This document shows, in pieces, positions 8,108 to 41,577 of a stretch of 64,000 bases of DNA. Position 1 is the stretch's first letter. Every line of letters begins with the position of its first letter. Where the stretch lies: positions 1,239 through 65,238 of the forward strand of contig JAIRSI010000063.1 of NCBI GenBank assembly GCA_031255515.1, in the 5' to 3' direction. Under the pieces are notes generated by a model that was not told the DNA's origin, did not search any database, and saw only the letters and a list, made by a program, of their open reading frames with translations. This DNA is from Oscillospiraceae bacterium (GTDB lineage: Bacteria > Bacillota > Clostridia > Oscillospirales > Acutalibacteraceae). Position numbers and translations under genes: made by a program.

Positions 8108-10744
8108 ATGGATACACAAAAATTTACTCAAAAAACCTTGGACGCTGTGCTGAATAGTCAAAAATTGGCAATAGAAAATCAAAATATGCAAGTGGAACCC
8201 GAGCATCTATTGTGTTCGCTTTTAGAGCAAGAAAACGGATTAATCCCTCGTATGTTTGAAAAAATGAAAATAAACACACAAAACGCCCTTAATATAACAG
8301 TAGAATATATTTTAAAAATTCCAAAAGTCAGTGGACCGGGTAGAGAACCTGATAAAATTTATATTTCTACATCTCTTGATAAAGTTTTCATCGAAAGTGA
8401 AAAGCAAAGCAAAAATTTAAAAGATGAATATATCTCCACCGAGCACATAATCTTGGCGTTTTTTGAAGCTAATATTCGAAACATTAACGAGATTTTTTCA
8501 AAAATAAATCTTGATAAACAAAATTTTTTAAGCGCATTAAAAGAGGTTAGAAAAAACGTCCGAGTTACAAATGACAACCCTGAGGAAACTTACGATGCCC
8601 TTAAAAAATATGGCTACGATCTAATCGAAAATGTCAAAAAGCAAAAACAGGATCCAATAATTGGGCGAGATGACGAAATCCGCAACGTAATTAGAATTTT
8701 GTCAAGAAAAACAAAAAACAACCCTTGCTTGATTGGCGAGCCCGGCGTCGGGAAAACTGCAGTCATCGAGGGTTTGGCGATAAGGATTGTCAAAGGCGAT
8801 ATCCCCGAAGGCTTGAAAGACAAAACGATTTTCGCCCTTGATATGGGTGCATTGATCTCCGGGGCAAAATATCGCGGCGAATTCGAGGAGCGTCTAAAAG
8901 CCGTTTTAAACGAAGTGAGACAGAGCGACGGCAAGATCATCCTTTTTATCGACGAGATCCACACGATAGTGGGAGCTGGCAAAGTAGATGGCGCCATGGA
9001 CGCCGGAAATTTACTAAAGCCTATGCTCGCCCGCGGGGAACTCCACTGCATCGGCGCCACAACTCTTACCGAGTACAGGAAATACATCGAAAAAGACGCG
9101 GCGCTTGAGAGGAGATTTCAGCCCGTTTTAGTCGGCGAGCCATCTGTCGAAGATACCATCACAATTTTACGCGGCTTAAAAGAGCGTTACGAAGTATTCC
9201 ACGGCGTTCAAATTGCCGATAATGCTCTAATCAATGCCGCGGTTTTGTCGAATAGATACATTTCTGATAGATTTTTGCCAGATAAAGCTATAGATTTGGT
9301 CGACGAAGCCTGCGCTATGATTAGAACCGAAATTGATTCTATGCCCACTGAGCTCGACGTCATCGCGCGAAAAATAATGAGTTACGAGATCCAAGAAGCC
9401 GCCCTAAAACGCGAAACGGATGAACCTTCGCAAGAAAAATTAAGGTCTACTCAGAAAAAACTTTCACAGCTTCGCGAAAATTTTAGCACGATGAAAGCCC
9501 AATGGGACACAGAAAAATCGGGAATAAAATCAATAAGAAATATTAAAGAAAGCATCGAAAAAGTTAACGCAGAGATTGAAAGATCCGAGAGAAACTACGA
9601 TTTAGATAAACTAGCAGAGCTTAAATATGGCAAATTGCCAGAACTTAAAAATCAGTTAAAAATCGCAGAAGAAAACGGCGACAATAAAAGACAAAGCACG
9701 CTCTTAAGAGACAAAGTCACAGACGAAGAAATCGCCAAGATTATCGCGCGATGGACAGGTATTCCCATTGCAAAACTTTTAGAAAACGAAAAAGATAAAA
9801 TTTTAAGGCTAAACGAAGAACTTCACAAAAGAGTTATCGGCCAAAAGACGGCTGTGAATAAAGTTTGTGACGCTATAATTCGTTCAAGGTCAGGAATTTC
9901 TGACCCAAATCGCCCTATTGGTTCATTTTTCTTCTTAGGCCCCACTGGAGTTGGTAAGACCGAACTTGCAAAAACACTCACCGAAAATCTTTTTGATGAC
10001 GAAAAAAACATGATTCGCATTGATATGACAGAATATATGGAAAAACACTCTGTATCGAGATTAATCGGCGCACCTCCCGGCTATGTTGGTTACGAGGAGG
10101 GTGGACAACTTAGCGAAGCGGTTCGCAGAAGGCCGTATTCTGTAGTTTTATTCGACGAAATCGAAAAAGCTCACAGCGATGTTTTTAATATTTTGCTTCA
10201 GGTTCTGGATGATGGACGGCTCACCGATTCTCATGGAAAGACAGTCGATTTCAAGAACACGATAATTATTTTGACTTCAAATATTGGTTCGGAACTTTTG
10301 ATCGACGGAATAAATCAAAACGACGAGATTGAAAAAGATACCAAACTCGAAATTAAAAACCTTTTAAAACAAAATTTTAGGCCTGAATTTCTAAACAGGC
10401 TCGACGGGATTGTATTTTTTAAGCCCTTAATAAAAGACGAAATTTATAAAATTATTGACATTTTAATAAATAATTTATCAAAGCGGCTCGAAAATCAACA
10501 AATTCAAGTCACTTTAACACAAAAAACCAAAAACTTCATCATCGAAAGCGCCTATGATATAACTTACGGCGCAAGGCCGCTCAAGAGATTTATTCAAAGC
10601 AAGATCGAAACTCTAATCGGAAAATTAATTATAAAAGGTGAAATTTTGCCGGGCCAAAAAATCAAGATAGATATGGAAAACGGCAAATTGGTGATTAAGG
10701 ATCAAGACCAGAACAAACGGCAAAAACAACAAATTAATAATTAG
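8108..10744 (+). CDS. clpB: ATP-dependent chaperone ClpB
   Basis: 878 aa with two AAA+ modules (GEPGVGKTA, GPTGVGKTE), a long middle coiled coil, and an AAGGAGG RBS. Confidence 0.97.
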   Translation: MDTQKFTQKTLDAVLNSQKLAIENQNMQVEPEHLLCSLLEQENGLIPRMFEKMKINTQNALNITVEYILKIPKVSGPGREPDKIYISTSLDKVFIESEKQSKNLKDEYISTEHIILAFFEANIRNINEIFSKINLDKQNFLSALKEVRKNVRVTNDNPEETYDALKKYGYDLIENVKKQKQDPIIGRDDEIRNVIRILSRKTKNNPCLIGEPGVGKTAVIEGLAIRIVKGDIPEGLKDKTIFALDMGALISGAKYRGEFEERLKAVLNEVRQSDGKIILFIDEIHTIVGAGKVDGAMDAGNLLKPMLARGELHCIGATTLTEYRKYIEKDAALERRFQPVLVGEPSVEDTITILRGLKERYEVFHGVQIADNALINAAVLSNRYISDRFLPDKAIDLVDEACAMIRTEIDSMPTELDVIARKIMSYEIQEAALKRETDEPSQEKLRSTQKKLSQLRENFSTMKAQWDTEKSGIKSIRNIKESIEKVNAEIERSERNYDLDKLAELKYGKLPELKNQLKIAEENGDNKRQSTLLRDKVTDEEIAKIIARWTGIPIAKLLENEKDKILRLNEELHKRVIGQKTAVNKVCDAIIRSRSGISDPNRPIGSFFFLGPTGVGKTELAKTLTENLFDDEKNMIRIDMTEYMEKHSVSRLIGAPPGYVGYEEGGQLSEAVRRRPYSVVLFDEIEKAHSDVFNILLQVLDDGRLTDSHGKTVDFKNTIIILTSNIGSELLIDGINQNDEIEKDTKLEIKNLLKQNFRPEFLNRLDGIVFFKPLIKDEIYKIIDILINNLSKRLENQQIQVTLTQKTKNFIIESAYDITYGARPLKRFIQSKIETLIGKLIIKGEILPGQKIKIDMENGKLVIKDQDQNKRQKQQINN

Positions 10745-11282: not shown

Positions 11283-12335
11283 TTATTTGTCAAAAATCAA
11301 TTGTACACAAGATCCATAAAAGTGCTGGCGGAAATCCCCTTTCATCGGACAATATGCATCCATCCCTCGTCCTTCAATCTGTGTTATAACGCGCCCGTTT
11401 GTGTGTGCAGGCACATTTTTCTCTGTCTCAATTTTACTATATCGCCCTGGTAGTAGCGAATCAAAGGCGTAGCCAGGTTTAAAAAATTTGTCCCCCCCAC
11501 AATTAATTGCGCCCTGTCCATCTTTTACGTTCTGTTTCGTTCTCGGATCGAACACTTCGGCATAACAAAAATCCTCTTCCAAACGATAATTGCCTTCACT
11601 GCATTCCAGTTCTATTCTTGTTAATTCCTCACTGCTATACTCATCTAAAACTTTAATGCCCAAAACTTTCACCATGTCATCTCGGGTTCTTTTTAATTAC
11701 TCTGAATTTAACAATCACGAATTGCACGCCATAATCGCAAAACTTTACGTCAAATTCGCAAAAGCTTTGCAAATGGGTCGGATATATTGAGACAATAAAA
11801 GGGTGAGTTCACCTGGTATATGCTAAAACTTTGAAAAGTTTAGTTGTCGTAGGCAAATAATCAAGTCTAAAATCCCCACCAATTTCGCTAATTCACCAAG
11901 AACAAGTATAAATAAAAAGAACTCTATCTTGCTTCTTGCATTTAAAACTCGATCGCAAACAAAACTGCCTTATCCCTTGCAAAATATCGACATAGATAGC
12001 ATTCAGATCGACCGCAAGAGTTATAAGCCTCCCGCTATAGAACCCGAACTGCGCGTTAAATACTTAAAATCATCAACATCCTTCAAGATGTCGTTCGAAA
12101 ACCCTTTAGTCAACTCATCCTTATATAAAATCGGCAAATTTGCAAAGTCTTCAAATGTTTTTATGTCGAAAGATTCGCAACTTACCGCGCCATATTTTCT
12201 GTATATTGTCAAATTTGCAAACGCATAATCAACCGACCTACTCAATCTTTCTAACTGGTATTCTCTAATCTTTTCACGCCGCATTCTCGAAAAATTCATT
12301 ATCGATTCAAAACTATCACTTAACATCCTGCTCAA
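11283..12335 (-). pseudogene. PaaK/CapK-type (phenylacetate-CoA ligase-like) adenylating enzyme, fragmented
   Basis: The N-terminal piece (12021-12335) matches the PaaK-like N-terminus up to a degenerate SSGxxG motif. The C-terminal piece (11283-11675) has LLPGRY...IEGRGMD. The 350 bp between them has no open frame. Confidence 0.55.
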
Positions 12336-13089
12336 AACATCATCGTGACTGACGATACTAAACTCAAGACTACCTCTTTGTCGTAACCTTCAAAAAATTT
12401 TGCTGCATTTTTCGATGATTTTCTAATAAATTTGTTAAAATCAGCACCGGCATTTGAGTTGGCACCATCCGAAATTTAGCGCATAATCCCAAAATCTACC
12501 CCATTTACAAAGCAAGTTTGTCCAACGGCACCGGCCTCCATATCACAAGCAATTCCGCCAAAATCATTTTTTAATTGAGATAATTTACTTTTGCAAGCTA
12601 TAAATTGATCGCCAGAAAGAATAGTTCCTCTGTGGGGTTTTTAGATCCTTTAAAATTTTAGAAATTTTAACGGCTTTTATTAAAATCCAGCTGCTGCAAA
12701 GGATTTTTACAAAACCAATCCCCGGTATTCCACCTTTTCCCCTATTTGGAAAAATCGACGAATCAAAATCGTGCTGGACAACACAATCGGCGATAACAAT
12801 ATCGCCAACATCAATATTTTCATCTATTCCACCAGCGACACCAATGTTTAGTATAAAATCAGGATCGTACTTTAAAATTAAGGTCTGCGTGCAAATCGCA
12901 GCATGCACCTTTCCGACCCCCGCTTAAACCGACAAAACAGTTAATTTTGTCAATTTTTTCTAGGATAAATTTGAACGCCCCGGCTTTTTCTTCATTTTTT
13001 TCTGTCATTAACTTTAAAATTTCATTTATTTCTTGCAATTCTGCACAAATTAATCCTATTTTATTGGAGCCGTTAAAATTTTTTATCAC
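12332..13089 (-). pseudogene. mtnN: 5'-methylthioadenosine/S-adenosylhomocysteine nucleosidase, frameshifted with an in-frame stop
   Basis: Pieces KIGLICAELQEINEIL, GVAGGIDENIDVGDIVIAD..HDFD and GTILSGDQFI...ACDMEAGAVGQ..R*ISD align colinearly with Pfs/MtnN but lie in different frames. Confidence 0.8.
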
Positions 13090-32477: not shown

Positions 32478-33350
32478 TTACATTACTTTTTCTTGTTGTG
32501 TTAATTTCTTGCTTAATGTACCCTTGCTTAACATAATGTTAAACACTGCTGATAATTGATTCGTTAAAAAATGATAAACGCCATTTTCATTATTATCAAA
32601 ATCCGTTACACAATCAGCCACATCTTTAGCTTCTTTCGCACCATTTATCATGCACACTCCCATTCCAGAGTTTTTTAATAATTCAATATCATTAATAGCA
32701 TCTCCAAAAGAAATAATATTTTCAATAACAATATCATTTTCTTCTGCAACACGCTGAACTGCTATCCACTTGTTAACAGATCCAACGGATATATCAATAA
32801 TATCGTCTCGGCCTCGCCATCCGCAGACAATGATATCATCAAATAATCGTATAACTTTATTTTGCAAGGCCTGTAGAAAATCCGGCGAAACACTAATTAT
32901 TATTCTTTGAACATCAAAAATCTTAGCTAATTTATATCCTATATGGAAAAACGGCAAATTGTGATTAACTATAATTTCATGAAGATACTCATTTTCATTT
33001 GTGAGCAGATATGTTTCATTGCATCGTGATAAAACCACATTGTTAATTTCATAATTTTTTTGATATTTAAGCAAAAACTCTAAAATACTTTCAGCATTGC
33101 TAATATTATTTTGATGTCTTACAATTCCGTTATTCGGATTACAAATAAGTCCTCCATTATGACAAATTAAATCATTTTCTAGATTAAGCACTTTATAATA
33201 CTGATACGCATCTGATACAGAGCGTCCTGTAGCAATGTAAACCACATGTTCTTTTTTGATAAAGTGAATCGCTTGCTGCAATTCATTTGATAGATTATAG
33301 GTATCTGTTATGCTTGTTCCATCTATATCTAATACTAACATCTTTCTCAT
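32478..33350 (-). CDS. HAD-IIB Cof-type phosphatase
   Basis: LVLDIDGT, ATGRS and FGDAINDIELL motifs. ATG 33350 is preceded by AAGGAGG. Confidence 0.85.
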   Translation of the reverse strand: MRKMLVLDIDGTSITDTYNLSNELQQAIHFIKKEHVVYIATGRSVSDAYQYYKVLNLENDLICHNGGLICNPNNGIVRHQNNISNAESILEFLLKYQKNYEINNVVLSRCNETYLLTNENEYLHEIIVNHNLPFFHIGYKLAKIFDVQRIIISVSPDFLQALQNKVIRLFDDIIVCGWRGRDDIIDISVGSVNKWIAVQRVAEENDIVIENIISFGDAINDIELLKNSGMGVCMINGAKEAKDVADCVTDFDNNENGVYHFLTNQLSAVFNIMLSKGTLSKKLTQQEKVM

Positions 33351-33369
33351 GACTAATTTTCCTCCTTTA

Positions 33370-33999
33370 TTATTTATCATTTTTTTCTATTACATAATGG
33401 TTAATAAAATCTGGGTGCCCAAATTTCTCCGAAAAACTTTCAAAAAACGGTATAGGTCTAATTATCTTGTATCTTTTTAATATCAAATTTTGTTTCGATA
33501 ATATGTAATTTTCTTTATCTATAAAACGCAAAAACTCATAAGATTTTTTTCTGTATTCAAGCTGATTTACTGGATTTAAAAGTTGCAACGAGGAAAGAAC
33601 ATCAAAATAGGCAATTTCATTCACTCCAAGATGTTGTGCCAAAAACATATCAAACAATTCTTCCTGTACACCAAATCCGAGTCTAAAACTACTATACGAT
33701 CTCGCGGGATATTGTGAGATATTTAAAAGTTTTTTTAATGCGTCTGGATCAATTGCATCTGGATATAAATATGGAAATAAATCAATAATAGAATCTTGAA
33801 TGTGAAAATCCGCATCTTTATTATTCCAAGACCATGTCTGTATTTTATCGCTAATCATTTTATCATCATATATAATTTTTCCAACTATTTGGAAACTATC
33901 TACACTCATAATTAATTTCTTACCAGATTGAACGAGACTGTTCAAAGTCTCTTTGATAAATGGAGATTCTATATTCCCAATAAACAATGTTTTACTCAT
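33370..33999 (-). CDS. Hypothetical protein (209 aa), no motif recognised
   Basis: Intact ORF whose start overlaps the stop of the upstream deaminase-like ORF. Confidence 0.5.
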   Translation of the reverse strand: MSKTLFIGNIESPFIKETLNSLVQSGKKLIMSVDSFQIVGKIIYDDKMISDKIQTWSWNNKDADFHIQDSIIDLFPYLYPDAIDPDALKKLLNISQYPARSYSSFRLGFGVQEELFDMFLAQHLGVNEIAYFDVLSSLQLLNPVNQLEYRKKSYEFLRFIDKENYILSKQNLILKRYKIIRPIPFFESFSEKFGHPDFINHYVIEKNDK

Positions 34000-34319
34000 A
34001 AATTATCACCAAGACTTGTGTTAGTTAAAAACTCACCTGTTTGATTGTTTTTGCCTGCTAAATAAAGCGTTGAACCTTGCGCGCCAGCTGGGGGAGCGTT
34101 CATAATAGCAGTCGCTTCTGCATGCTGTATGTTTTAATTATTATATTATTCCTGAATTTTAGACGCTTTGTTTATTTGCGCAATATGACTGTACCCTGTA
34201 TAAATAACTACACCGTCAAGAACTATAGCTACACCAAAGTTGATATGTGGACAATTGCCGTTATTCAATGCGGTTTCGGCAATATCTAAATAATAATCAA
34301 TTTTATCAATATAGTCCAA
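33996..34319 (-). pseudogene. CMP/dCMP (cytidine/deoxycytidylate) deaminase-like ORF interrupted by two in-frame TAA codons and lacking the PCxxC motif
   Basis: AGGAGG RBS plus TTG 34319. Reads DYYLDIAETALNNGNCPHINFGVAIVLDGVVIYTGYS ... KIQE*YNN*NIQHAEATAIMNA...GSTLYLAG. Stops at 34146-34148 and 34134-34136. The HAE zinc motif is present but no PCxxC follows. Confidence 0.5.
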
Positions 34320-34346
34320 ATCGTACCTCCTATAATCTAAAATGTT

Positions 34347-34994
34347 CTACCCTTCTTTATAATTAACTTGAGCGTCTTTTTCACCAATATCAAATATTTT
34401 TTTACTTACAATAAAATCAAATACAGGCATATGAATCTGAACTGAAGATATTCTTAATTTCCCGACTTCTTTGCATGATTCAGTGGCTACATTTAAATGA
34501 AGATAAGCCATTTGATGGTAGTCTAGCAATGCCATCCTAAATAAATTCATAGTTGAATAGTTTACATGCATATTAATAACGCCATCGGATACATCAAGAG
34601 CAATATTGCTTATACAAGGAGTTGGTACATTTTCTCTGTTATCTTTATTTGGGTCATATATAGGTATCACAATAGGTTTGATATTTTTTCTTTTTTTAAT
34701 AATTTTAATAGCATATTCATACTGATTAATTTGATTTGGGCCAAAGGAATAAAGACGATTTATTTCAGAATGCTTTCCGGGAGAAGTAATTTGAGATAAG
34801 TAATATTCACGGTTTCTCAGTTGCCATGGGCAAAAAGCACTTAACGTTGGTTCTACTGTATAGTTCTGTGCTTGAACTGTAAGGTTGTCCAAAAGTAAGT
34901 ATTCTTTTCCACACATGTTTCTTGAATAAGCATTATTAAGAAAGTATCTCATTGCTTCTTCCCAACATTTATTTATTGATGATTCAATAATCAT
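34347..34994 (-). CDS. Short divergent thymidylate-synthase-fold protein (TS-like 2)
   Basis: 215 aa. VPTPCISNIALDV...NYSTMNLFRMALLDY aligns without gaps to TS-like 1 from the catalytic Cys to the Asp. Cys and Asp are kept, but RSxD reads STxN. Confidence 0.55.
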   Translation of the reverse strand: MIIESSINKCWEEAMRYFLNNAYSRNMCGKEYLLLDNLTVQAQNYTVEPTLSAFCPWQLRNREYYLSQITSPGKHSEINRLYSFGPNQINQYEYAIKIIKKRKNIKPIVIPIYDPNKDNRENVPTPCISNIALDVSDGVINMHVNYSTMNLFRMALLDYHQMAYLHLNVATESCKEVGKLRISSVQIHMPVFDFIVSKKIFDIGEKDAQVNYKEG

Positions 34995-35039
34995 TACCTA
35001 CCTCCATCCAATTATTTATATATTTGTTTAATTAAGCAG

Positions 35040-35648
35040 CTAAACAATTCGTCTTGTCTCATATTCTCGAATGACATTGGCATACGCTTCACATATTTCT
35101 CTATTATTCTTGATAAGAATGGCTTTTTCATTTTCCATTGCATATTTACAATAAAGTTTTTTTAAGCGTCTCAAACAAAGGATATTTTCAAATTCGTTAG
35201 CTCCTCCTCTACTCTGAATTCGCTTTTCAATTAAATCCATTTCAGAATCAATTACAAATGTTAAATCTGGTTCAAGACACATGCTATAAACGATGTTGGT
35301 AAAATCATTTTCTGCTATCCAAACTTTAGCATATAGTTGTTGACATATTGCCCATCGATCTAAAATTATTACCTTATTAGAAGAATCCGAATCTTTAATA
35401 TCTTCAGAATTTTGTAATAAATCAAATCCCATAATATAAGACCCAATAACATTCAATTCATGTTTTTTATTTGGATATTTTTCAAAAAATTCTTTTCGTA
35501 CCATGTTATAGTTTTTTGCGAATGTAGTATCAGGTCGCAATGCTTTTATGATAGTTACTGTTTTGCCTGTTTGCTTTAGATACTCTGCAAATTTGGACAA
35601 TAATGTTGTTTTTCCGGTTCCATCAACTCCAACGAAGGCAATTATCAT
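35040..35648 (-). CDS. dTMP-kinase-like P-loop nucleoside monophosphate kinase
   Basis: IAFVGVDGTGKTT P-loop, VIILDRW, PDLTFVID and a LID-like RIQSRGG in thymidylate-kinase order. Confidence 0.7.
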   Translation of the reverse strand: MIIAFVGVDGTGKTTLLSKFAEYLKQTGKTVTIIKALRPDTTFAKNYNMVRKEFFEKYPNKKHELNVIGSYIMGFDLLQNSEDIKDSDSSNKVIILDRWAICQQLYAKVWIAENDFTNIVYSMCLEPDLTFVIDSEMDLIEKRIQSRGGANEFENILCLRRLKKLYCKYAMENEKAILIKNNREICEAYANVIREYETRRIV

Positions 35649-35662
35649 GCTAAAACTCCTTC

Positions 35663-36523
35663 CTATATATTTACATAATTTATCATTATAGGTTTATATT
35701 TATTTTTCATCCAATTTTCTCCACCATTGATTTTGGTCTCGTATTCTTGAAGAGAAATGTCTCCGAGTATAAATTTTTTAAAAAGAGACACTTCGGTAAA
35801 AGGATGTTTGTTGAAAAAAATCTGGTGGCTGCTGTTAACGTGATCTTTATAAAATCCCGAATTTCTTAAATGGGCGATATGTATATTTTCAGCTTTCTCG
35901 TTACTCATAAAAACTACATTATCTTTTTTCAGTCGGTAACCCAATTCAAAATGTTCAAATCCCCAAGATTTAAAATCACAATCAAATCGATGTTCGGCTA
36001 ATGTGGATTTCTTTAAAGCCATATTTCCTGACAATGTAGAAAGCCAACATAAATGACTGTCTGTTTTTCCAGATTCATCGTAAATTTGTGAAATAACTTT
36101 ATAATAAATGGATTTGCGTTTAATAATCTTTTCTGTATTTACCTTTAGCTTGTCAATGCTGTCATATGTTTCAGTTAAATATCCTATACTCAAAATAGCA
36201 TCCTGTGAATCAATTAAATTCATATGTGATTCTATAAAATTAGGAACAGGCAACCGATCACAATCACAAAAAATAATAAATTCGCCTTTGGAGATATCTA
36301 TAGCAATGTTTCTGGTATACGCCCGGCCTTTATTTGTTTTGTTCTTTATATATTTAATTTTTAATGAATTATAGTTGTTAATTACAGATGGTTCATAATC
36401 TAACGATCCATCATCGACAATAATAATTTCGAATGGTTCTGATGTGGTTTGTCTGCAAAAATGCCACAGTGTTGCATCTAAAGACGGATATTGATTGTAT
36501 ACAGGAATAATAACACTAATCAT
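35663..36523 (-). CDS. Glycosyltransferase family 2
   Basis: ISVIIPVYNQ, IIIVDDGS and a DCD (DxD) motif. Confidence 0.85.
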   Translation of the reverse strand: MISVIIPVYNQYPSLDATLWHFCRQTTSEPFEIIIVDDGSLDYEPSVINNYNSLKIKYIKNKTNKGRAYTRNIAIDISKGEFIIFCDCDRLPVPNFIESHMNLIDSQDAILSIGYLTETYDSIDKLKVNTEKIIKRKSIYYKVISQIYDESGKTDSHLCWLSTLSGNMALKKSTLAEHRFDCDFKSWGFEHFELGYRLKKDNVVFMSNEKAENIHIAHLRNSGFYKDHVNSSHQIFFNKHPFTEVSLFKKFILGDISLQEYETKINGGENWMKNKYKPIMINYVNI

Positions 36524-39223: not shown

Positions 39224-40087
39224 TCAGTCCTTTATATTATGTGTTGTGTAACTTTTATTTTTCAAAACTTCAACAAATTGTTTCCAATAAGAATTTAATA
39301 AGCTAATATTTTGTACAGTCTCATTTTTTCTGAGTGCGCGTTCTGTTTCTAATATCAAAGATATCTGTTCGCTATTGACAGATTCAATTGTCATGCTAGG
39401 CATACTTTGATTATCAGCATCTTTAGTTTTTTTAAGACAATCAAAAATATTGAAATTTCTTTCGTATATGTGTAAGCTGCCTACCATGTGGGTATATGAA
39501 CCCAATTCAACATTCAACTCTATTGCTAACATTTCTTGTAGCATAGTAAAACTAAAAATATCATAAGGCATGCCAAGATATATATCATTAGAGCGCATGT
39601 ATGTAACAGCATTTAACTGCTTATTACGAATGAAATATTGCAGAACACATGTACACGGTATATCTAACGAAGATGCAAACAAATCACGCGGTTGATATAT
39701 TGATATTACAGCTTGCCTTGAATCAGGGTCTTTAGATAAAATATTCTTAACCCATTCCCATTGGGAAAGCTTACCTCCGAATATTCTTGTACCATATGCA
39801 CCGTTAACAGTAATTTTATCATCAGAAAAATTAGGATATATTTTACTGTAGTACTCCATAATATTTAGTCTGTCGCTTCCTCTTAGATACCAAAGAAATT
39901 CACCGAAAGCAAACGATAAACTCATTTTTCGGACAGAATTATTCGTAATCCTATCTCTTGGATTTTTTATGGAAAACGAAACACCTAAACATTCTTTTAT
40001 TTTCATTCCACGTGGACTGGACTCGAATGCAGATTTTAATTGGTTCACATGATATATGAACGCTTCGTTTACATTTTTAAAAATCAT
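39224..40087 (-). CDS. Thymidylate-synthase-fold pyrimidine-nucleotide C5 (hydroxy)methylase with Asp specificity signature (TS-like 1)
   Basis: AFGEFLWYLRGSD, catalytic Cys in DIPCTCVLQYF, and MRSNDIYLGMPYDIFSF (canonical PFN replaced by PYD). ATG 40087 overlaps the upstream TGA (ATGA). Confidence 0.8.
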   Translation of the reverse strand: MIFKNVNEAFIYHVNQLKSAFESSPRGMKIKECLGVSFSIKNPRDRITNNSVRKMSLSFAFGEFLWYLRGSDRLNIMEYYSKIYPNFSDDKITVNGAYGTRIFGGKLSQWEWVKNILSKDPDSRQAVISIYQPRDLFASSLDIPCTCVLQYFIRNKQLNAVTYMRSNDIYLGMPYDIFSFTMLQEMLAIELNVELGSYTHMVGSLHIYERNFNIFDCLKKTKDADNQSMPSMTIESVNSEQISLILETERALRKNETVQNISLLNSYWKQFVEVLKNKSYTTHNIKD

Positions 40088-41577
40088 AATGTCACCCCAT
40101 CTGTAAATCGTTTGGTCTTGCCGTTGTATGTTCTGCAAATATTTTTCACAAAATTAAAGCATTTTGGAATTTTGTAATTGCTTAAATTTTTCGAGCAAAC
40201 AGATTTAAGTTGCTGAATGATTTCCACATTATCAGAATTTGATACAATGTCTGCATGAACTACTTCGCCAAGCAAATCATCGTTAACTCCATATACTTTT
40301 ACATCCATGATACCCGGGTAAGTTGAAATCACTTCTTCTACTTCCTCAGGACATATGTTTTGTCCTCCAGAAATAATTATATTTTTCTTTCTACCAACTA
40401 AATACAAATATCCATCTTCTGAAAGATATCCTATATCTCCCGTATATAGCCACTCACCACGTATTATAGCTTTTGTTTCTTCTATACATTTGAAGTATCC
40501 TTTCATGATTCCCTTACTTTTCACAATTACTTCTCCTGTTACACCTTTTGGAAGCGGCGATCCAAGAGTATCAACAATTTTTATTTCGACTTTAGGAATC
40601 GCACATCCTACAGAACCAATTTTTTCGATATATTGAGAAGGAGGCAATGTTGTAACCCGTGGACCTGCTTCGGTTAATCCATATGTTTGGACAAAAGCAA
40701 TTGACGGGAACTTTTTTATAATATCTAGTAATTGAGACTTTGGAATTGGATTGCCTCCAAAACATATTATTTTTAACGATGAGATATTATAAGATAACAG
40801 TTCACTATTGCATAAAGCGATCAAAATTGTAGGCACCGCAGTAAAATTTGTAATACTCCACTTTTCTATTATTTTATAGAAATCAGCCACCATAAATGGG
40901 TTTGGGTTAATCACAATGCAAGCACCTAAGTATACATGTGCTAAAAATTGGGCTGTATTGCAATACCCAAACATCATAGGAAGCTGTATCAAACAAACTT
41001 CATTAACATCAAACTTTAATGATTCACAATGGGATTTAATATTACTCAATAGCCCTTGATTGGTTAGCATAACTCGTTTTGATTTTGATGTTGTTCCAGA
41101 TGTATGCAATAGAACCACAACATCGTCAAGCTCATTTTCATTAAGAACGGTTGAAGAAACACTATTGGTATATAATTTAATATTTCTTTGAATCTCAGCA
41201 CAATCATTTATTACAATGAGGTTCATATGAAGCTTATTTGTATGTACTAATGCTTCAATCATGGGAAAATATACTTCTGTTGTTATTAAAGTAAAAATCT
41301 CACAGTGTTTTATTGTATCTAATAATTCATTCATTGTAGTACTTGTATGAAATGGTGCAATTACCTTGTCCGCATAAAGACAAGCAAAATAACTAATAGC
41401 ATATTCAATACCATTTGGTAAAAATAACCCTACTATTTTTTCATGTTTGTCTTTTAATGCTTCATTACTAAGTTTATCAGAAAGCTGATGCCATTGCTTG
41501 TATCCCAGTGCAATCTCTCCACACACAATGGCGATCTTATCAGATTCTTTAAGCCTTATCAAAAGATTGCAAACCAT
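40084..41577 (-). CDS. ANL-family adenylating enzyme (acyl-CoA/acyl-carrier-protein ligase)
   Basis: HTSGTTSKSKRV, QTYGLTEAG, YTGDIGYL..GRKKNIIISGGQNI and a C-terminal NGKTKR. Confidence 0.85.
   Translation of the reverse strand: MVCNLLIRLKESDKIAIVCGEIALGYKQWHQLSDKLSNEALKDKHEKIVGLFLPNGIEYAISYFACLYADKVIAPFHTSTTMNELLDTIKHCEIFTLITTEVYFPMIEALVHTNKLHMNLIVINDCAEIQRNIKLYTNSVSSTVLNENELDDVVVLLHTSGTTSKSKRVMLTNQGLLSNIKSHCESLKFDVNEVCLIQLPMMFGYCNTAQFLAHVYLGACIVINPNPFMVADFYKIIEKWSITNFTAVPTILIALCNSELLSYNISSLKIICFGGNPIPKSQLLDIIKKFPSIAFVQTYGLTEAGPRVTTLPPSQYIEKIGSVGCAIPKVEIKIVDTLGSPLPKGVTGEVIVKSKGIMKGYFKCIEETKAIIRGEWLYTGDIGYLSEDGYLYLVGRKKNIIISGGQNICPEEVEEVISTYPGIMDVKVYGVNDDLLGEVVHADIVSNSDNVEIIQQLKSVCSKNLSNYKIPKCFNFVKNICRTYNGKTKRFTDGVTL

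Follow-up and report, generated by a model that had tools for sequence, protein, structure and literature searches.

The 64,000-nucleotide stretch of DNA analysed here (the window) comes from an Oscillospiraceae bacterium (assembly GCA_031255515.1, contig JAIRSI010000063.1, positions 1,239 to 65,238) and contains two genes coding for thymidylate synthase (TS)-like proteins, which we call TS-like 1 and TS-like 2. TS-like 2, a protein of 215 amino acids, is encoded between a kinase gene of the thymidylate kinase (Tmk) type and the remnant of a deaminase gene, within a large gene cluster that is nucleoside-antibiotic-like and uncharacterised. An earlier note, made from the DNA letters alone, had described TS-like 2 as a second, degenerate TS-fold protein lacking the phosphate-binding Arg. 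That observation is confirmed, and what it said of TS-like 2, of the kinase and of the deaminase remnant was correct in every detail that could be checked; the interpretation attached to it is supported in part. Judged by its relatives, TS-like 2 is no relic and is part of a small clade, which has evolved within a single family of gene clusters. This clade is a variant within the TS superfamily for which no member has been described.

Fold, active site and clade of TS-like 2

The AlphaFold2 (AF2) model of TS-like 2, for which 17 orthologues were used, had a pLDDT of 88.9 and a pTM of 0.86. Compared with the PDB by Foldseek it matched TS-fold structures exclusively, with E values of ~1e-10 and TM scores of 0.70-0.79 to E. 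coli TS (EcTS), MilA and AfhB. The top match was 9iqu, 'phage HY126 dCMP hydroxylase AfhB', and E. coli TS and MilA came after it. The earlier note had staked its fold assignment on this search, a non-TS fold counting against it, and only TS-fold matches came back; as modelled, TS-like 2 has the TS fold. Searching the PDB by sequence gave the same phage HY126 protein first (9iqu/9iqc, E 1.7e-4) and MilA next. The NCBIfam model of short archaeal-type TS, TIGR03283, matched over the full length at E 1.9e-8 (34.1 bits, the cut-off being 174.55) and PHROG TS families matched at 1e-7. Pfam gave no match to TS-like 2, PF00303 being without a hit at E<=0.1. The two TS-like proteins of the window share 26% identity over 109 amino acids (BLASTP, E 4e-4), and the alignment drawn in the earlier note, running without gaps from TPC(127)ISN on the catalytic Cys to LLD(158), was recovered by HMMER and MAFFT. 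TS-like 2 is the shorter of the two by 72-89 amino acids, a difference also seen before.

An alignment was made of TS-like 2, TS-like 1 and E. coli ThyA together with two phage proteins of the AfhB type and short TS relatives, and the HMMER alignments agree with it. Cys146, His147, Gln165, Arg166, Ser167, Asp169 and Asn177 of ThyA correspond to Cys127, Ile128, Tyr146, Ser147, Thr148, Asn150 and Asp158 of TS-like 2, Ser125-Arg126-Arg127 to Ile105-Lys106-Pro107, and Tyr209 to a Pro. The altered motifs were therefore read properly the first time, with S147-T148-M149-N150 in place of RSxD and I105-K106-P107 in place of SRR. In TS, Cys146 is the nucleophile that attacks C6 of the pyrimidine, and Asp169 opens methylene-tetrahydrofolate (methylene-THF). 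The 5'-phosphate is gripped by Arg21, Arg126', Arg127', Arg166 and Ser167, and the 3'-OH by His207 and Tyr209 (restated in the MilA paper, PMC5175136). Four of these phosphate and 3'-OH residues are gone from TS-like 2 (Arg166, Arg126', Arg127' and Tyr209), and the nucleophile and the cytosine-reading Asp are kept. The equivalent of Arg21, which is aligned with uncertainty, varies among the orthologues (R/K/Q/T), and position -3 from the Cys (the L143 equivalent) is Pro, Ser or Gln across them, that is, non-acidic. No residue aligned with the folate-stacking Trp80/Trp83, in a region where the alignment is weak. Cys127, Asn150 and Asp158 are invariant across the 17 orthologues. The title of PDB entry 1bjg reads 'D221(169)N mutant does not promote opening of the cofactor imidazolidine ring', and the invariant Asn at position 169, taken with this mutant that does not open the ring, therefore argues against methylene-folate chemistry in TS-like 2.

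Among 1.84 billion representative proteins, 9 were found at E<1e-10 when searched with a profile, and the clade of TS-like 2 amounts to about 11 clusters among these representatives. When the motif states of 79 profile hits were tabulated, a single group without Arg166 was found, consisting of the TS-like 2 family and of P0025, P0026, P0028, P0029, P0030, P0031, P0034 and P0035. All its members keep the Cys and the Asp, and all keep the Asn with the sole exception seen of P0030, a fragment of 169 amino acids that has Asp at the 169 position, while every tabulated relative outside the group has RSxD, RSxN or RSxR. Nine clade members, at 20-35% identity, were aligned with the references and showed ~19 conserved positions, among them Cys127, Asn150, Leu157 and Asp158. 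The most conserved positions of the clade gather at the TS active site; Arg166, Arg126'/127' and Tyr209 are missing in all aligned orthologues and clade members. The loss of the phosphate clamp, which the earlier note had seen in one Arg, is thus real, being conserved clade-wide and extending to Arg126'/127' and Tyr209, and a substrate without the normal 5'-phosphate, also proposed there, can reasonably be inferred from it.

In a quick IQ-TREE tree of 63 sequences, in which the deep branches are weak, the group without Arg166 was monophyletic (SH-aLRT 99). It branched within short TS proteins of the RSND type, and both TS-like 1 and the two phage hydroxylase sequences were placed elsewhere. 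Since the tree separates their lineages, TS-like 2 is not a decayed duplicate of TS-like 1, and a recent duplication is ruled out by the same placement. The term degenerate does not suit TS-like 2 either, its conservation equalling that of other enzymes of the cluster (77-80% identity to close clusters, against 69-83% for the neighbouring enzymes). Nor did the suggestion of a non-catalytic partner of TS-like 1 hold up: the Cys, Asp and Asn are kept in aligned clade members down to 20-30% identity, the constant neighbour of TS-like 2 is an orphan gene of ~210 codons, and TS-like 2 comes from another TS lineage.

Other short TS-like proteins also vary at the 169 position. P0036, P0038, P0040, P0056 and P0073, of ~230 amino acids, have Arg there (RSQR/RSNR/RSMR) and Asp at 177, and further ones have Ala (RSQA). 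This variability hints at more branches that may be folate-independent. In addition, nine larger proteins of 426-512 amino acids (P0044, P0051, P0053, P0054, P0061, P0062, P0078, P0079 and P0091) carry a short TS-like domain in their C-terminal half, behind an N-terminal extension of ~170-220 amino acids.

The cluster, its kinase and the orphan partner

TS-like 2 and its neighbours (Table 1) belong to an operon-like block at ~26.5-51.4 kb of the window (26490-51443), with every gene on the minus strand. In the order of transcription the block starts with a B12 radical-SAM enzyme, a carbamoyltransferase, a PF14907 nucleotidyltransferase, a 323-amino acid protein without assignment and a serine hydroxymethyltransferase (SHMT). 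After the SHMT come a C*-A protein and another adenylating enzyme, followed by TS-like 1. Next are an APH-fold kinase, a carrier protein and a double alpha/beta-hydrolase, then GT2, the Tmk-like kinase, TS-like 2, the deaminase remnant, the orphan protein of 209 amino acids and a Cof-type HAD phosphatase. Two ABC exporters, another unassigned protein (335 amino acids) and a phosphopantetheinyl transferase come last.

Table 1. Position in the window of the genes discussed in the text
Feature	Position	Strand	Remarks
TS-like 1	39224-40138	-	Pfam Thymidylat_synt 1e-30; canonical length
GT2 (family-2 glycosyltransferase)	35663-36523	-	Pfam Glycos_transf_2 1e-27; adjoins the Tmk-like kinase
Tmk-like P-loop kinase	35040-35648	-	Pfam PF02223 (Thymidylate_kin) 2.7e-15
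TS-like 2	34347-34994	-	open reading frame (ORF) of 215 amino acids; TS fold predicted by AF2 and Foldseek
dCMP-deaminase-like pseudogene	33996-34319	-	AGGAGG ribosome-binding site, TTG start; two in-frame TAA codons, 34146-34148 and 34134-34136
Orphan partner protein (~210 amino acids; 209 in the window)	33370-33999	-	downstream of TS-like 2 in 15/15 readable contexts
Cof-type HAD phosphatase	32478-33380	-	Pfam Hydrolase_3 4.8e-45; mostly directly 3' of the partner gene in orthologous contexts

The cluster has been acquired horizontally, because it has no counterpart in 60 related genomes, three of the same genus included, and its GC content (26490-51443) is 31% against 37% in the rest of the window; the same two facts rule out vertical inheritance. 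The genome is of 1.22 Mb in 91 contigs, and an acquired biosynthetic cluster of 25 kb is a large investment for a reduced genome of 1.2 Mb. A housekeeping protein encoded at 8108-10744 of the window had its best identity (68%) to metagenome-assembled genomes (MAGs) of uncultured gut Clostridia.

Close orthologous clusters were found in Paenibacillus sp. BJ-4, 'Bacillus' sp. FJAT-27264, a Lachnoclostridium MAG, a Lachnospiraceae MAG and several metagenome contigs, with nearly identical gene order. The distant members without the Arg (22-36% identity) lie in clusters that have been rearranged but are of the same family, to which all 15 of the 15 readable contexts of the TS-like 2 clade belong. 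GT2 and the Tmk-like kinase are always side by side in these contexts, and TS-like 1 is present in each cluster whose contig reaches far enough. Some local rearrangements were seen as well. In the closest orthologous cluster, on a Logan contig, the Tmk-like kinase and TS-like 2 are separated by an inserted pair of IS3-type transposase genes (L018:8477-9623). A Lachnospiraceae-type contig has the HAD phosphatase and a radical-SAM domain fused in one ORF of 609 amino acids (L016:6123-7952). Paenibacillus and L014 have a separate radical-SAM gene after the HAD gene, and the window has none at that place.

The orphan protein is the constant companion of TS-like 2. Its start overlaps the stop of TS-like 2 in most orthologues, a case of translational coupling, and it stays behind TS-like 2 even where ABC transporter genes part TS-like 2 from the kinase. 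Its homologues are recognisable across divergent clusters (E 3e-7 to 5e-26; for example L021:2474-3163, L022:6562-7218, L023:10628-11263, L109:1079-1741 and L108:2630-3211), and every member found adjoins a TS-like 2 gene inside such a cluster. The motifs FRLGFGVQEELFD, WSW and YPD are invariant in the family. By sequence and profile the partner had no match in Pfam, NCBIfam, PHROGs or the PDB. Its AF2 model (pLDDT 81) gave at best TM scores of 0.2-0.4 with E>3e-3 when compared by Foldseek with the PDB and BFVD. An N-glycosidase like MilB/BlsM and a flavin reductase were both considered for this protein, and no fold evidence supports either.

TS-like 1 is the sole PF00303 match in the genome. 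It has the cytosine-type Asp together with an acidic residue at the L143 position, as in hydroxymethylases, and it is TS-like 1, rather than TS-like 2, that is the predicted MilA-like enzyme of the cluster. The Tmk-like kinase shows the motifs listed in the earlier note (GVDGTGKTT, DRW and the LID stretch RIQSRGG), and its assignment to the Tmk family is borne out by Pfam (57 bits with PF02223, above the 27-bit cut-off) and by an alignment over its full length (residues 1-195, 3e-13) with Tmk of Aquifex aeolicus (PDB 2pbr). It has in common with this Tmk the P-loop, the DR[YFW] motif and the LID arginine. In the family alignment of the kinase G7, D9, G10, G12, K13, D97, R98 (of DRW) and R147 (the LID Arg) are invariant. 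Unlike a true Tmk it remains under the TIGR00041 cut-off (52.3 against 83.25 bits). The dTMP-site residues of Tmk include the stacking Phe and the Arg of F..A.R..H. The stretch corresponding to these two residues reads VIGSYIMGFDLL, both being replaced, and the kinase family shows no conservation of the REPGGT Arg. Most likely, then, the kinase is active on a different, probably pyrimidine-like acceptor and is not the dTMP kinase of the cell. It may phosphorylate either a modified NMP or a hydroxyl group, the two options given in the earlier note.

The earlier note had made its model depend on this kinase not being the only tmk of the organism, and it is not: a better tmk lies beside thyX on another contig, C77 (thyX 235 bits; tmk with a DRY motif, 70 bits with TIGR00041). 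There the two genes lie within 3 kb (C77:9402-12563), and this tmk, too, with canonical motifs, scores under the TIGR00041 cut-off (70 vs 83 bits). Because of thyX and tmk on C77, neither TS-like 1 nor TS-like 2 is needed for dTMP synthesis. TS-like 2 as the thymidylate synthase of the cell is ruled out by the presence of thyX and by the wrong residues in its active site.

The deaminase remnant

The deaminase-like ORF was found as the earlier note had given it, with its AGGAGG ribosome-binding site, two TAA codons in frame, no PCxxC and a stop overlapping the next ATG. The translation is ...KIQE*YNN*NIQHAEATAIM...LGDNL*, in which HAE is present and PCxxC absent, and the TGA and the start codon of the partner gene overlap (ATGA). 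Read through, it matches positions 4-78 of the 102 of PF00383 with 29 bits, the match to the model stopping before PCxxC. It is 47.5% identical over 101 amino acids to an intact deaminase of 140 amino acids in the cluster of Paenibacillus sp. BJ-4. In the clusters of Paenibacillus BJ-4 and FJAT-27264 the gene of the intact protein, which is weakly ComEB/dCMP-deaminase-like, follows the HAD gene; where the window copy ends, 8 codons past '...GEFLT', the orthologue goes on with GPCMMC and ~35 residues. The remnant has therefore three defects: two nonsense codons, a missing zinc motif and a missing C-terminus.

TAA ends 25 of the 43 long ORFs of the window and is the commonest true stop in it, so that recoding of the two TAA codons as sense codons is ruled out. 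That they are assembly errors hiding an intact deaminase is highly improbable. The remnant protein is known from a single contig, which would agree with an error, but the reading frame continues undisturbed before and after the stops, indicating substitutions rather than indels, and even when these are read through the 3' truncation still removes the zinc site. Both facts make an artefact unlikely. Furthermore, the sister cluster L018 shows an independent decay, with two shards of the deaminase only, after the HAD gene (12200-12244 and 12438-12494).

Comparison with the orthologous clusters, as the earlier note had suggested, showed the deaminase intact in two Paenibacillus-type clusters and decayed or absent in others (L013-L016 and L019 have none). 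The sequences present it as a real-looking pseudogene, derived from an accessory gene subject to repeated loss. The loss itself had been recognised correctly. The further idea, that it fits a pathway keeping the amino group of cytosine, is weak: since the gene is accessory and absent or decayed elsewhere, its loss says little on the chemistry of the pathway. The two Paenibacillus-type clusters whose deaminase is intact code for TS-like 2 as well, and for a TS-like 1 of the aspartate type (Pfam).

Possible chemistry of TS-like 2

The explanation that we favour, tentatively and at a little less than an even chance, is that TS-like 2 is a folate-independent and Cys-dependent enzyme that, jointly with its partner, acts on an intermediate which bears cytosine and lacks the normal 5'-phosphate. 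The Cys would add to C6 and so activate C5 of the cytosine ring on an intermediate of the pathway. With no ordinary 5'-phosphate, this intermediate might be the free base, a nucleoside or a sugar-linked cytosine. Methylene-folate would not be used as one-carbon donor. TS-like 2 would act together with the orphan partner, or in the step directly before or after it. Earlier in the pathway TS-like 1, fed by the SHMT, probably forms a 5-hydroxymethyl-cytosine nucleotide, and the Tmk-like kinase would be a dedicated kinase of the pathway with a pyrimidine-like acceptor. Several facts weigh against this explanation. The equivalents of E58, R21 and W80 in TS-like 2 could not be aligned with confidence, the losses from the canonical site are equally expected of a binding or non-catalytic protein, and the partner is without a recognisable fold, its role being a guess. 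In the literature on the gene content of the cluster and on CMP hydroxymethylase clusters in Paenibacillus, no paper describing the cluster was found.

Among the closest known proteins are AfhB (Escherichia phage HY126; 9iqu, 9iqc), RB69 gp48 and DLP3 gp80, flavin-dependent 5-hydroxy-dCMP synthases of the TS superfamily. TS-like 2 could be a flavin-dependent cytosine C5-hydroxylase of the AfhB/RB69 gp48 type, in which case the 5-hydroxycytosine would be glycosylated by GT2 and the Tmk-like kinase would have the role of the phage dNMP kinase, but we consider this improbable. AfhB is indeed the best PDB match of TS-like 2, in sequence (E 1.7e-4) as well as in fold (E 1.1e-10), and TS-like 2 shares with AfhB and gp48 a short TS fold (217-238 amino acids), the catalytic Cys, Asp at N177 and Asn at D169. 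This combination of Cys146, N177D and D169N (C127, D158 and N150 in TS-like 2) marks phage enzymes that hydroxylate C5 of dCMP with flavin and O2; D169N was proposed as diagnostic, and each D169N homologue tested made 5hodC (Lee et al. 2026, PMC13326640). The Leu before the Asp (176-177) is common to both as well, and the trio of glycosyltransferase, NMP-kinase-like protein and TS homologue mirrors the logic of the phages. However, the phage reaction on dCMP uses O2, and the hosts among gut Clostridia, Lachnospiraceae and Lachnoclostridium we take to be strict anaerobes. AfhB reads NSRR, E-Y-P-C and MRSQN where TS-like 2 reads NIKP, P-T-P-C and YSTMN, so that Arg166 and SRR are kept in the phage enzyme and lost here and the Glu of the phages at the L143 position is replaced by Pro, Ser or Gln. 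Moreover, TS-like 2 is paired with an orphan protein, its clade branches away from the phage enzymes (in the quick tree with weak deep branches), and a tblastn search with TS-like 2 gave no match in 50,697 phage records. Quite improbable is also a folate-dependent one-carbon transfer to a non-phosphorylated pyrimidine, with TS-like 2 as a second hydroxymethylase or a methylase supplied with methylene-THF by the SHMT. MilA, the CMP 5-hydroxymethylase of mildiomycin (PDB 5jnh, 5b6d), and BcmA are, like TS-like 2, TS-fold enzymes in nucleoside natural-product clusters. MilA and TS-like 2 both have Asp at N177, Lys at Arg126' (MilA Lys133') and Arg at the L172 position (AFRG in MilA, LFRM in TS-like 2), with Foldseek TM scores of 0.77-0.79. 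Unlike TS-like 2, MilA uses methylene-THF on CMP and carries an additional domain at its C-terminus; Arg166, Asp169, the second interface Arg, His216/Tyr218 and the acidic L143 residue are all retained in MilA. Of the features known for hydroxymethylases such as T4 gp42, MilA and BcmA (acidic L143 position, Asp169 and phosphate arginines; PMC13326640, PMC5175136), TS-like 2 lacks the acidic residue, Asp169 and Arg166, and it has the Asp at N177. The SHMT gene would agree with a folate-dependent reaction, but TS-like 1 already explains it. The nearest relatives outside the clade are short RSND-type TS proteins, presumably real one-carbon transferases. The TIGR03283 family (~200 amino acids), the best full-length profile match, resembles TS-like 2 in length and architecture, but its SRR, PPC-H, RSND and H-x-Y motifs are all altered in TS-like 2, which scores far under the cut-off. 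Asn replaces Asp169 in every clade member but one fragment, a change with which the TS mutant of 1bjg, by the title of that entry, does not open the cofactor ring, and no residue takes the place of Trp80/Trp83 in the (there weak) alignment.

TS-like 2 might instead be no enzyme at all but a binder, scaffold, chaperone or means of self-protection, holding on to the end product or to an intermediate that contains cytosine, maybe as a complex with TS-like 1 or with the partner. Most of the TS-site residues have been lost (the phosphate arginines, Tyr209, His147 and the function of Asp169), and the divergence of TS-like 2 and its partner in distant clusters (24-32% identity) outpaces that of TS-like 1, GT2 or the adenylating enzymes (42-49%). 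Nevertheless, we think this unlikely. The nucleophilic Cys, needless for a binder, is kept by every aligned clade member at 20-30% identity, the top-conserved positions gather at the TS active site, and gene order ties TS-like 2 to the orphan partner and not to TS-like 1.

There is also a more speculative, rather improbable version, in which TS-like 2 and the partner form a new reaction class of the TS superfamily acting on activated 5-hydroxymethyl-cytosine. The CH2-OH group, put in place by TS-like 1, would first be activated by phosphorylation (by the Tmk-like or the APH kinase) or by carbamoylation (by the carbamoyltransferase), Cys127 would then add to C6, and the leaving group would be expelled to give an exocyclic methylene. 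To this an amine or a thiol could add, for example an amino acid from the carrier proteins of the cluster. A variant would be an oxygen-independent flavin reaction on the TS fold. If true, this class would be the small-molecule, oxygen-independent counterpart of the hypermodification of 5-hydroxymethyl-deoxyuridine (5-hmdU) in phages.

To our knowledge, the TS superfamily was long held to carry out only folate-dependent one-carbon transfer to nucleotide 5'-monophosphates, until in 2025-2026 a flavin-dependent hydroxylase branch, marked by D169N, was found. The clade of TS-like 2 has D169N and N177D and yet is without the phosphate and sugar grip and bound to a partner, pointing to further chemistry on this scaffold. 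Probably, the clade does new chemistry on the cytosine ring. The uncharacterised nucleoside-type cluster in which it resides is common to gut Clostridia, Lachnospiraceae and culturable Paenibacillus, and the Paenibacillus carriers make the question testable at the bench.

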